A stretch of 64,000 bases of DNA from Escherichia coli (GTDB lineage Bacteria > Pseudomonadota > Gammaproteobacteria > Enterobacterales > Enterobacteriaceae). The notes below the pieces were generated by a model, which saw only the letters and a program-made list of their open reading frames with translations, made no database searches and had not been told where the DNA came from. Shown here piece by piece: positions 60,549-60,791 of the stretch (position 1 is its first letter; every line of letters starts with the position of its first letter). The stretch lies in the NCBI RefSeq assembly GCF_003334815.1, contig NZ_QOWO01000002.1. One strand, written 5' to 3'. A program made the position numbers and the translations under genes.

Positions 60549-60584
60549 GGTGCGGTCCTCAAATGAAAATAAGCCCTCAACTTT

Positions 60585-60612
60585 ATGACATGACGCGCTT
60601 ATTAGCTATAAT
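60585..60612 (+). promoter_or_regulatory. sigma70-like promoter facing rlmL (-35 ATGACA, 16-bp spacer, -10 TATAAT)
   Basis: Perfect -10 hexamer at 60607-60612, 5/6 -35 at 60585-60590; predicts a leader of about 170 nt. Confidence 0.5.
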
Positions 60613-60791
60613 GCGCAACAATTTTCTTAGCGCCTGTCCCATTAGGCTATTTTATTTGTCAGTTTGGCCCTGGGTTATGCTCGAAATCCTCACGTACTTG
60701 TGTACGCTCCGGTTTCTCCGCGCTGTCCATGTCCAGACTGACTGCAACAATTACGCCTACTGCGGTAGGCTCTTAGAGTAAAAGTGACGAT

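Follow-up and report, generated by a model that had tools for sequence, protein, structure and literature searches.

Escherichia coli rlmL-uup has a mapped promoter and a long folded leader that is a short leader carrying a mobile repeat, probably RSA

The divergent gap between ycbX (59439-60548, minus strand) and rlmL (60792-62900, plus strand, with its ATG at 60792 and uup located downstream) raises the question of whether the long, folded leader of the rlmL-uup messenger is a control element, the source of a separate small RNA, or something else altogether. In the 64,000-nucleotide stretch of E. coli DNA that we analysed (the window), this gap occupies 243 bp (60549-60791). Over its final 4 kb the window matches E. 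coli K-12 MG1655 letter for letter, and NC_000913.3 coordinates are obtained by adding 947052 to those of the window, an offset that was checked against the K-12 sequence. The original prediction had placed in the gap a promoter facing rlmL and an unusually long leader with a stable hairpin shortly before the start codon, and had proposed that these form either a regulatory leader or the origin of a short non-coding transcript. The sequence elements it named are indeed present, in a gap of the length it gave: a -35 hexamer ATGACA (60585-60590, plus strand, 5/6 match) and a perfect consensus -10 hexamer TATAAT (60607-60612, plus strand) separated by a 16-bp spacer, and the hairpin GCCTAC-TGCG-GTAGGC (60755-60770), which ends 21 nt ahead of the rlmL ATG.

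Taken by itself, the promoter match is no rarer than chance. The two hexamers together agree with the consensus at 11 of 12 positions, and two sites at least this good occur in the 64-kb window (the second one in the rpsA-ihfB gap) against 1.07 +/- 1.03 in dinucleotide shuffles of the same sequence. The use of the TATAAT promoter is settled by published start-site data. Cappable-seq positions were converted from U00096.2 to the newer genome version by a 777-bp shift, a value that agrees with the independent SMRT-Cappable-seq start position. Within the gap, the plus-strand start with the highest relative read score (5.55) is U00096.2 1006895 (Ettwiller et al. 2016; supplementary file 1 of PMC4782308). 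It falls on window position 60620, an A located 8 nt past TATAAT. SMRT-Cappable-seq gives the units 'b0948' and 'b0948|b0949', both running forward from 1007671, or window 60619 (Yan et al. 2018, PMC6131387, file 4), and the full-length capped reads from this position cover rlmL alone and also rlmL together with uup, whose co-transcription is stated as well in bioRxiv 10.1101/2023.06.11.543863. For the divergent ycbX transcript, the same SMRT-Cappable-seq data place an approximate start at 60572 on the minus strand (b0947, 1007624 reverse, PMC6131387), for which a candidate -10 hexamer, TAAAGT at 60580-60585 on the minus strand, would abut the rlmL -35. The rlmL-uup transcript itself starts at C60619/A60620, 7-8 nt downstream of TATAAT on the plus strand, so that the promoter fires toward rlmL as predicted, and the 5' leader measured from this start to the ATG in K-12-type strains is 172 nt (60620-60791, plus strand), in line with the roughly 170 nt first estimated. 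Published 5'-triphosphate mapping and capped full-length reads agree on this start, so that both the promoter and its leader of 172 nt are real and have been documented before. The outcome that would have spoken against the original prediction, a start close to the rlmL ATG and silence at the TATAAT, is not what the maps show: no start in the gap is stronger than the upstream one, and full-length reads from it traverse rlmL and uup. Reddy and Gowrishankar (J Bacteriol 2000) are also reported to have mapped the uup/ycbY promoter by primer extension and to have found it moderately active and constitutive.

The length of this leader varies among strains of the species. When the gap was compared by BLAST with 5426 complete E. 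coli genomes, it was filled in 4191 and not filled in 1235 (about 23% without the element); genomes without the whole gap match in two pieces that cover 68% of the query, and the middle part of the gap also matches further places in each genome. Alignment of the K-12 gap with that of an empty strain, WWCOL-236, reveals a 146-bp insertion with TTA repeated: the empty allele reads ...TTTTC-TTA-GAGTAAAAG... and the filled one ...TTTTC-TTA-[GCGCCTGTCCC...GGTAGGCTC]-TTA-GAGTAAAAG... The insert is therefore a miniature inverted-repeat element of 143 bp (60630-60772, plus strand) plus a duplicated TTA, whose left copy (60627-60629) covers transcript positions +8 to +10 and whose right copy (60773-60775) follows from the same alignment; the profile HMM of the repeat family described below matches 60629-60775 with an E value of 1e-37. 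In empty-site strains the gap measures 97 bp instead of 243 bp and the leader 26 nt. The promoter and the 16 nt ahead of the ATG are identical between filled and empty alleles, and the ribosome-binding region with the rlmL ATG (60776-60794, plus strand) is the same in both. The promoter, including its -35, is 100% identical in the E. coli empty-site strain and in E. albertii. At its rlmL locus, E. albertii shares the insertion, down to the TTA, in an element that differs at 7 positions and has the core CAG intact. This dates the insertion far back and shows that it is at least tolerated, while the copy in E. coli is in decay. Those E. coli alleles that lack it would then reflect either precise loss across the TCTTAG microhomology or a polymorphism of long standing.

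The element is bounded by a left terminal inverted repeat, GCGCCTGTCCCATTAGGC (60630-60647, plus strand; family consensus GAGCCTATCCCATTAGGC), and a right one (60755-60772, plus strand), and the hairpin at 60755-60770 that first drew attention to the leader is the latter repeat. The ends of this copy, read from the sequence as GCGCCTGTCCCA and TGCGGTAGGCTC, are too degenerate for the filter applied below to the ends of the family. Folded alone, the right hairpin has -10.9 kcal/mol (z -3.6), and the left repeat forms a small hairpin (60632-60647, -6.8 kcal/mol) followed by a T-rich run, a combination flagged as terminator-like. In the fold of the full leader (z -3.3), the right terminal repeat pairs with the left one, and the whole element makes one closed long hairpin of -51.1 kcal/mol (z -4.2), with -50.9 kcal/mol for the opposite strand. 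The ribosome-binding region is unpaired in the centroid fold of the leader both with and without the insert.

The minor capped ends of the region are an observation apart. Besides the main start, Cappable-seq lists plus-strand starts at 1006936 (score 2.04), 1007053 (2.94) and 1007246 (2.12), corresponding to window positions 60661, 60778 and 60971 (PMC4782308). The end at 60778 lies 14 nt ahead of the rlmL ATG, and no convincing promoter hexamers were seen in the sequence. Weaker capped ends within the element (60661) or just past it (60778) weigh against an explanation of the element as a passenger.

The insert belongs to a family of dispersed repeats. A sensitive search with 60620-60791 found between 1 and 8 places per E. 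coli genome (median 5) at 84-88% identity, and six places per genome in K-12 derivatives. With a family HMM, five copies were located in MG1655 (NC_000913.3): the rlmL copy at 1007681-1007827 and the pheS/pheM copy at 1798987-1799131, both on the plus strand, and the copies at pyrH/frr (192641-192774), cysP/ucpA (2543641-2543783) and qseG/glrK (2689518-2689664; glrK is also called qseE), all on the minus strand. The sixth K-12 copy was not found among the MG1655 loci placed by this HMM, and the rlmL copy has the lowest HMM score of those located. Beyond E. coli, an exact-word scan with the core GTACGCTCCGGTTNCTNCGCGCTG across 100,044 species genomes returned at least 120 loci. The matches listed are in Escherichia, Citrobacter, Enterobacter, Klebsiella, Kluyvera, Serratia, Yersinia, Pectobacterium, Dickeya, Erwinia, Pantoea and others, with copies in more than 20 genera, and, outside Enterobacterales, in Aeromonas, several Burkholderiales genomes and one Xanthomonas. 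Among the matches listed there are 36 distinct full-length copies, recognized by the terminal repeats GAGCCTATCCCATTAGGC and GCCTACTGGGATAGGCTC with at most 4 mismatches allowed per end, which have the ends GAGCCTATCCCA...TGGGATAGGCTC and a length of 143-145 bp; the 3-bp flanks are identical in 26 of these 36 and are always TAA or TTA. Orientation relative to the flanking genes, again among the matches listed, has no bias (29 co-directional sense, 34 antisense, 23 convergent and 11 divergent). Other copies adjoin cysP, qseG, recF, hscB, groEL and ybaK in either orientation, copies in Burkholderiales occupy the interval from iscA to hscB, and a single copy in Rhodoferax that from groES to groEL. 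In a longer variant, about 65 nt are added as a further module, which consists of two small hairpins with covariation of their own. In literature text, the core sequence was found only within a deletion primer for Salmonella Typhi cigR that contains a copy.

The element is without coding capacity, the sole frame through the rlmL copy being an artefact, and no autonomous element with matching ends was noticed in about 1 Mb of sequence flanking family copies. Because of its terminal inverted repeats, fixed short target duplication, small size, multiple copies and clean empty site, the rlmL insert is a MITE, that is, a non-autonomous DNA transposon. Some IS5 subgroups, like PIF/Harbinger elements, typically duplicate a 3-bp TWA target, and the family resembles MITEs of the IS5 and PIF-Harbinger type in that duplication as well as in its terminal inverted repeats, its lack of coding capacity and its size of about 145 bp. 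Unlike most MITEs, however, the whole element is a covarying hairpin, and not just its ends. A second likeness is to ERIC/IRU, which are also small palindromic intergenic repeats of enterobacteria, often transcribed, found in either orientation and variably present among strains, but which are unrelated in sequence and differ in length (127 bp for ERIC, 143-145 bp for this element) and in target duplication, since ERIC duplicates TA and this element 3 bp (TAA/TTA). An ERIC identity was considered and rejected: the ERIC2 primer sequence has no match with up to 3 mismatches anywhere in the window. REP/BIME sequences, intergenic hairpin repeats inside operons whose hairpins affect mRNA decay, offer a plausible analogy, although they consist of GC-rich units of about 35 bp without the architecture of terminal repeats plus duplication that is seen at rlmL.

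The element may already have a name. A repeat called 'RSA', of 150/151 bp, stands six times in the original K-12 GenBank record, twice forward and four times as complement (PMC5172473 Table 1). Our element of 143-145 bp with its two 3-bp flanks amounts to 149-151 bp, against the 150/151 of RSA, and the five located MG1655 copies are 2 forward and 3 reverse, against 2 forward and 4 complement. Both are enterobacterial, intergenic, about 150 bp long and present in six K-12 copies. Judging from size and copy number, with strand counts that are compatible, the element very probably belongs to the RSA repeat family. In the current RefSeq record, no repeat feature is annotated at this site in the rlmL gap.

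The account that we favour, and hold with considerable confidence, is that a sigma-70 promoter with a short ancestral leader has received a non-autonomous repeat, probably RSA, as a tolerated passenger. The constitutive sigma-70 promoter ATGACA-16-TATAAT (60585-60612) starts the rlmL-uup mRNA at 60619/60620, with an ancestral leader of 26 nt that about a quarter of E. coli genomes still have. In K-12 and most strains, insertion of the 143-bp element at +8 to +10, with duplication of TTA, has lengthened the leader to 172 nt, and the element folds back on itself into one closed hairpin and leaves the ribosome-binding region as it was before. The data above show the promoter and its start, the passage of transcripts into rlmL and uup, the insertion with its limits, the repeat family and the polymorphism. 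What we infer beyond them is that rlmL-uup tolerates the insert as a passenger, whose influence on the stability or translation of the mRNA would be modest at most, and that it did not evolve as a control element for these genes.

In the family as a whole, the structure has been maintained. In an alignment of 94 copies, a single long hairpin has 32 pairs, 18 of them with compensatory double changes. Paired cells make up 95.3%, against 86.7% after shuffling of partners and 24-37% after sliding, and the covariation score is 0.269 against 0.113 in shuffles, of which 0 of 500 reach the observed value. One pair alone reads A-U in 50 copies, C-G in 32 and G-C in 10. The invariance of the core word is a matter of construction, because the copies were gathered through an exact core word, but the covariation of the flanking stem is not. 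Changes on both sides of a pair are also seen together among copies without terminal repeats that occupy the same site in different genera: eight pairs in the dnaN|recF set (Klebsiella, Raoultella, Pluralibacter, Phytobacter and Siccibacter) and six in the Pantoea/Erwinia set beside ruvC. Because of this covariation, including compensatory changes in immobile orthologous copies, the alignments indicate that the family hairpin is under selection, be it for transposition or for host function. Regarding the strand on which such selection would act, cells of the G-U type number 75 and those of the A-C type 66 at variable pairs, and both strands fold equally well; the sole hint of strandedness is two invariant U-G pairs on the plus strand. 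In the family core, no sigma-54 promoter or IHF site was seen by eye.

Could the family then be more than selfish DNA? Its inner hairpin of about 105 nt, whose core GGGCAGTGCTCGnAATCCTCACGTAC-loop-GTACGCTCCGGTTnCTnCGCGCTG is nearly invariant, may be a selected structured module and possibly a functional RNA or DNA element that has escaped cataloguing, a proposal that we regard as rather unlikely. It is made conceivable by the immobile copies, which keep the hairpin at fixed sites in housekeeping operons (dnaN|recF, iscA|hscB, groES|groEL and pyrH|frr), and the hairpin ranges from Enterobacterales to Aeromonas and Burkholderiales and, more distantly, to Xanthomonas. If the proposal were true, the family might, for instance, act between cistrons as a signal for processing or stability, with the rlmL copy as a decaying member. 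Two Rfam models align to parts of the family. The full model of sX9 (RF02228, a Xanthomonas sRNA) aligns to the apical hairpin and the CUCCGGUUNCU..CGCGC stretch of the core, below its gathering threshold of 44 bits, at 25.8 in the window, 30.6 at the Xanthomonas locus and 30.2 in a canonical copy, and 20-31 overall. AaHKsRNA22 (RF02902, an Aggregatibacter sRNA) aligns to the module of about 65 nt of the long variants with 29.8 bits, against a threshold of 39.8. These matches are leads to distant relatives and do not imply membership.

Structural selection on the hairpin elsewhere leaves room for some function of it in mRNA, and the alternative that survives best at rlmL is that the inserted hairpin has been co-opted, so that a 5'-proximal double strand, either as a protective structure or as an entry site for RNase III, alters the stability or processing of the rlmL-uup mRNA, with different expression in filled and empty strains. 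Several observations are compatible with it: the mRNA enters a stable closed hairpin 10 nt from its 5' end, E. albertii and 77% of E. coli have kept the insertion, compensatory changes preserve the family hairpin even in immobile copies at orthologous loci, and other copies lie in transcribed leaders or between genes of the same operon (pheM/pheS, glrK/qseG). Yet the rlmL copy is precisely one in which the structure is eroding. The conserved family core (60672-60725, plus strand), with an apical hairpin CGTAC-TTGT-GTACG at 60693-60706, has columns at least 90% invariant in the 94-copy alignment, with the exceptions supplied by the rlmL copy. Here TTA replaces a near-invariant CAG at 60675-60677, a change that breaks two core pairs kept in 92-93 of the 94 copies. 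The orientation of the element is, moreover, random with respect to transcription. As for RNase III, rlmL is absent from the main text of the surveys of Gordon 2017 and Altuvia 2018, and the cleavage site in pheM that appears in the main text of Gordon 2017, at 1799278, belongs to the attenuator and not to the repeat copy, which spans 1798987-1799131. We consider co-option improbable.

Far less credible is a dedicated cis-regulatory RNA, such as a riboswitch, an attenuator or a protein-binding leader, that would sense a signal of ribosome biogenesis and control rlmL-uup. The long structured leader, with its fold z-score of -3.3, the fact that rlmL and uup act on the ribosome, and the presence of several copies beside translation genes such as pheS and frr would all suit such a role. 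The structure is nonetheless a mobile repeat missing in about 23% of strains, a polymorphism that largely refutes regulation of this kind, and its copies adjoin unrelated genes in either orientation. In a search at permissive thresholds with the window copy, a canonical copy, the long variant and eight other loci, no Rfam family reached its gathering score, and long capped reads pass through the leader into both genes of the operon. No 3' end is listed for rlmL in the Term-seq tables of Adams et al. 2021. The regulatory leader of the original prediction accordingly gives way to a mobile repeat that is absent from many genomes, inserted at unrelated loci in both orientations and degenerate in its core at this one.

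We give equally little credence to the idea that the promoter mainly yields a short non-coding RNA ending inside the element. For Shigella flexneri, an 84-nt RNA named Ssr8 has been predicted in the interval from SF0948 to rlmL on the basis of a promoter and a terminator, and was positive by RT-PCR (PMC4782007 Table 1); the left terminal hairpin followed by TATTTTATTT does resemble a terminator. RT-PCR, however, cannot separate a short RNA from the rlmL leader, which accounts for the Ssr8 signal, and the left hairpin, weak at -6.8 kcal/mol, forms in competition with base pairing between the left and right repeats. The full-length reads from 60619 include rlmL and uup, and no 3' end upstream of rlmL is listed in the Term-seq tables (Adams et al. 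2021). Finally, the 80-aa frame at 60539-60781, open and with an ATG, was rightly left uncalled and has practically no chance of encoding a small protein: its ATG precedes the mapped start by 81 nt and is antisense to the start of ycbX, 50 of its 80 codons come from the inserted repeat, and it is 36 codons long in empty-site strains, so that it is an artefact of the insertion.

The finding is thus real but ordinary, a mobile repeat of a known kind in a short leader, and the insertion explains why the leader of rlmL is unusually long and folded. It also serves as a warning that hairpins derived from repeats can be misread as regulatory RNAs or sRNA genes, as with the prediction of Ssr8 in Shigella. 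The two natural alleles, with leaders of 26 nt and 172 nt behind an identical promoter, are a pair that can be used to measure the effect of such an insertion on an mRNA. The description of the wider repeat family is a matter separate from the rlmL locus and a modest loose end, but this old, uncharacterised family, absent from Rfam and with clear covariation and a wide host range, may deserve to be properly described.

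The rlmL -10 lies at the centre of an imperfect 22-bp palindrome (window 60595-60616; GCGCTTATTAG|CTATAATGCGC, with half-site matches of 8/11) that is identical in sequence in E. albertii. Two readings of this palindrome are that ycbX and rlmL, whose promoters lie back to back, could share a regulator that binds here, or that it arose by chance. Two weaker Cappable-seq 5' ends were found on the + strand, one within the left arm of the repeat in the rlmL leader (60661, score 2.04) and the other 14 nt upstream of the rlmL ATG (60778, score 2.94). Inspection of both ends for promoter hexamers found none that was convincing, and they could represent weak element-borne promoters or artefacts. 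The 64-kb window contains one other 11/12 promoter-like match, TTGACA-17-TGTAAT (16663-16691, +), in the rpsA-ihfB gap, where an ihfB promoter is expected.

At the other end of ycbX (-), this gene and the convergent zapC (+) overlap by 4 bp (window 59439-59442). Two Term-seq 3' ends described as antisense to ycbX (K-12 1006586 and 1006647; window about 59534 and 59595, + strand), on the same strand as zapC, fall 92-153 nt into ycbX from its coding end, and terminator-like hairpins are found near them at 59589-59605 and 59621-59637. Apparently, zapC transcripts terminate inside ycbX.

Complete E. coli genomes carry the repeat at 1 to 8 places. Among the matches listed, the example strains without the rlmL copy have a total of only 1-2 places, so several copies are polymorphic together, perhaps in a lineage-wise manner. 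Long variants of the repeat, 191-206 bp in length (loci L014, L016, L021, L023, L028, L070, L093 and L099; e.g., L016:6568-6659) contain an extra module of ~65 nt, bounded by GTGCTCG and AATCCTCAC. Two small hairpins make up this module and show covariation from copy to copy; the module also matches the Rfam model of Aggregatibacter sRNA 22 below threshold (29.8 vs 39.8 bits). In [Erwinia] mediterraneensis, the inner module occurs three times in head-to-tail order with a spacing of 130 bp (L096, about 1180-1590, - strand); this is a tandem array and not a set of dispersed single insertions.

The near-invariant core of this enterobacterial repeat is also present, among the matches listed, in housekeeping operons of Betaproteobacteria and Xanthomonas: between iscA and hscB in Burkholderiales (L006, L043, L094), between groES and groEL in Rhodoferax (L024), and in Xanthomonas codiaei (L066:34-88). 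The core matches Rfam sX9, again below threshold. In Serratia it follows fdx (L013/L061), and the outer-stem sequence GCTACTGCGC...GCTCGCTACGC is common to the isc-operon copies of Serratia and Burkholderiales. A 234-bp contig in an alphaproteobacterial assembly, Methylobacterium mesophilicum (L056), is a near-canonical copy of the enterobacterial type (HMM score 141.9); most likely the contig is a contaminant and does not reflect the actual range of hosts.

Some copies without terminal inverted repeats occupy one common intergenic site across several genera, for example between dnaN and recF (L017:6945-7062 (-), L098:10407-10524 and L109:8061-8178) or, in Pantoea/Erwinia, beside ruvC (L045, L051, L064, L073, L124). 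Their long hairpin is kept by compensatory double changes, at 8 pairs in the dnaN-recF set and 6 in the ruvC set. Because these same-site copies retain the hairpin in this way, the comparison suggests that the structure of the repeat is selected in place, and not during transposition alone.
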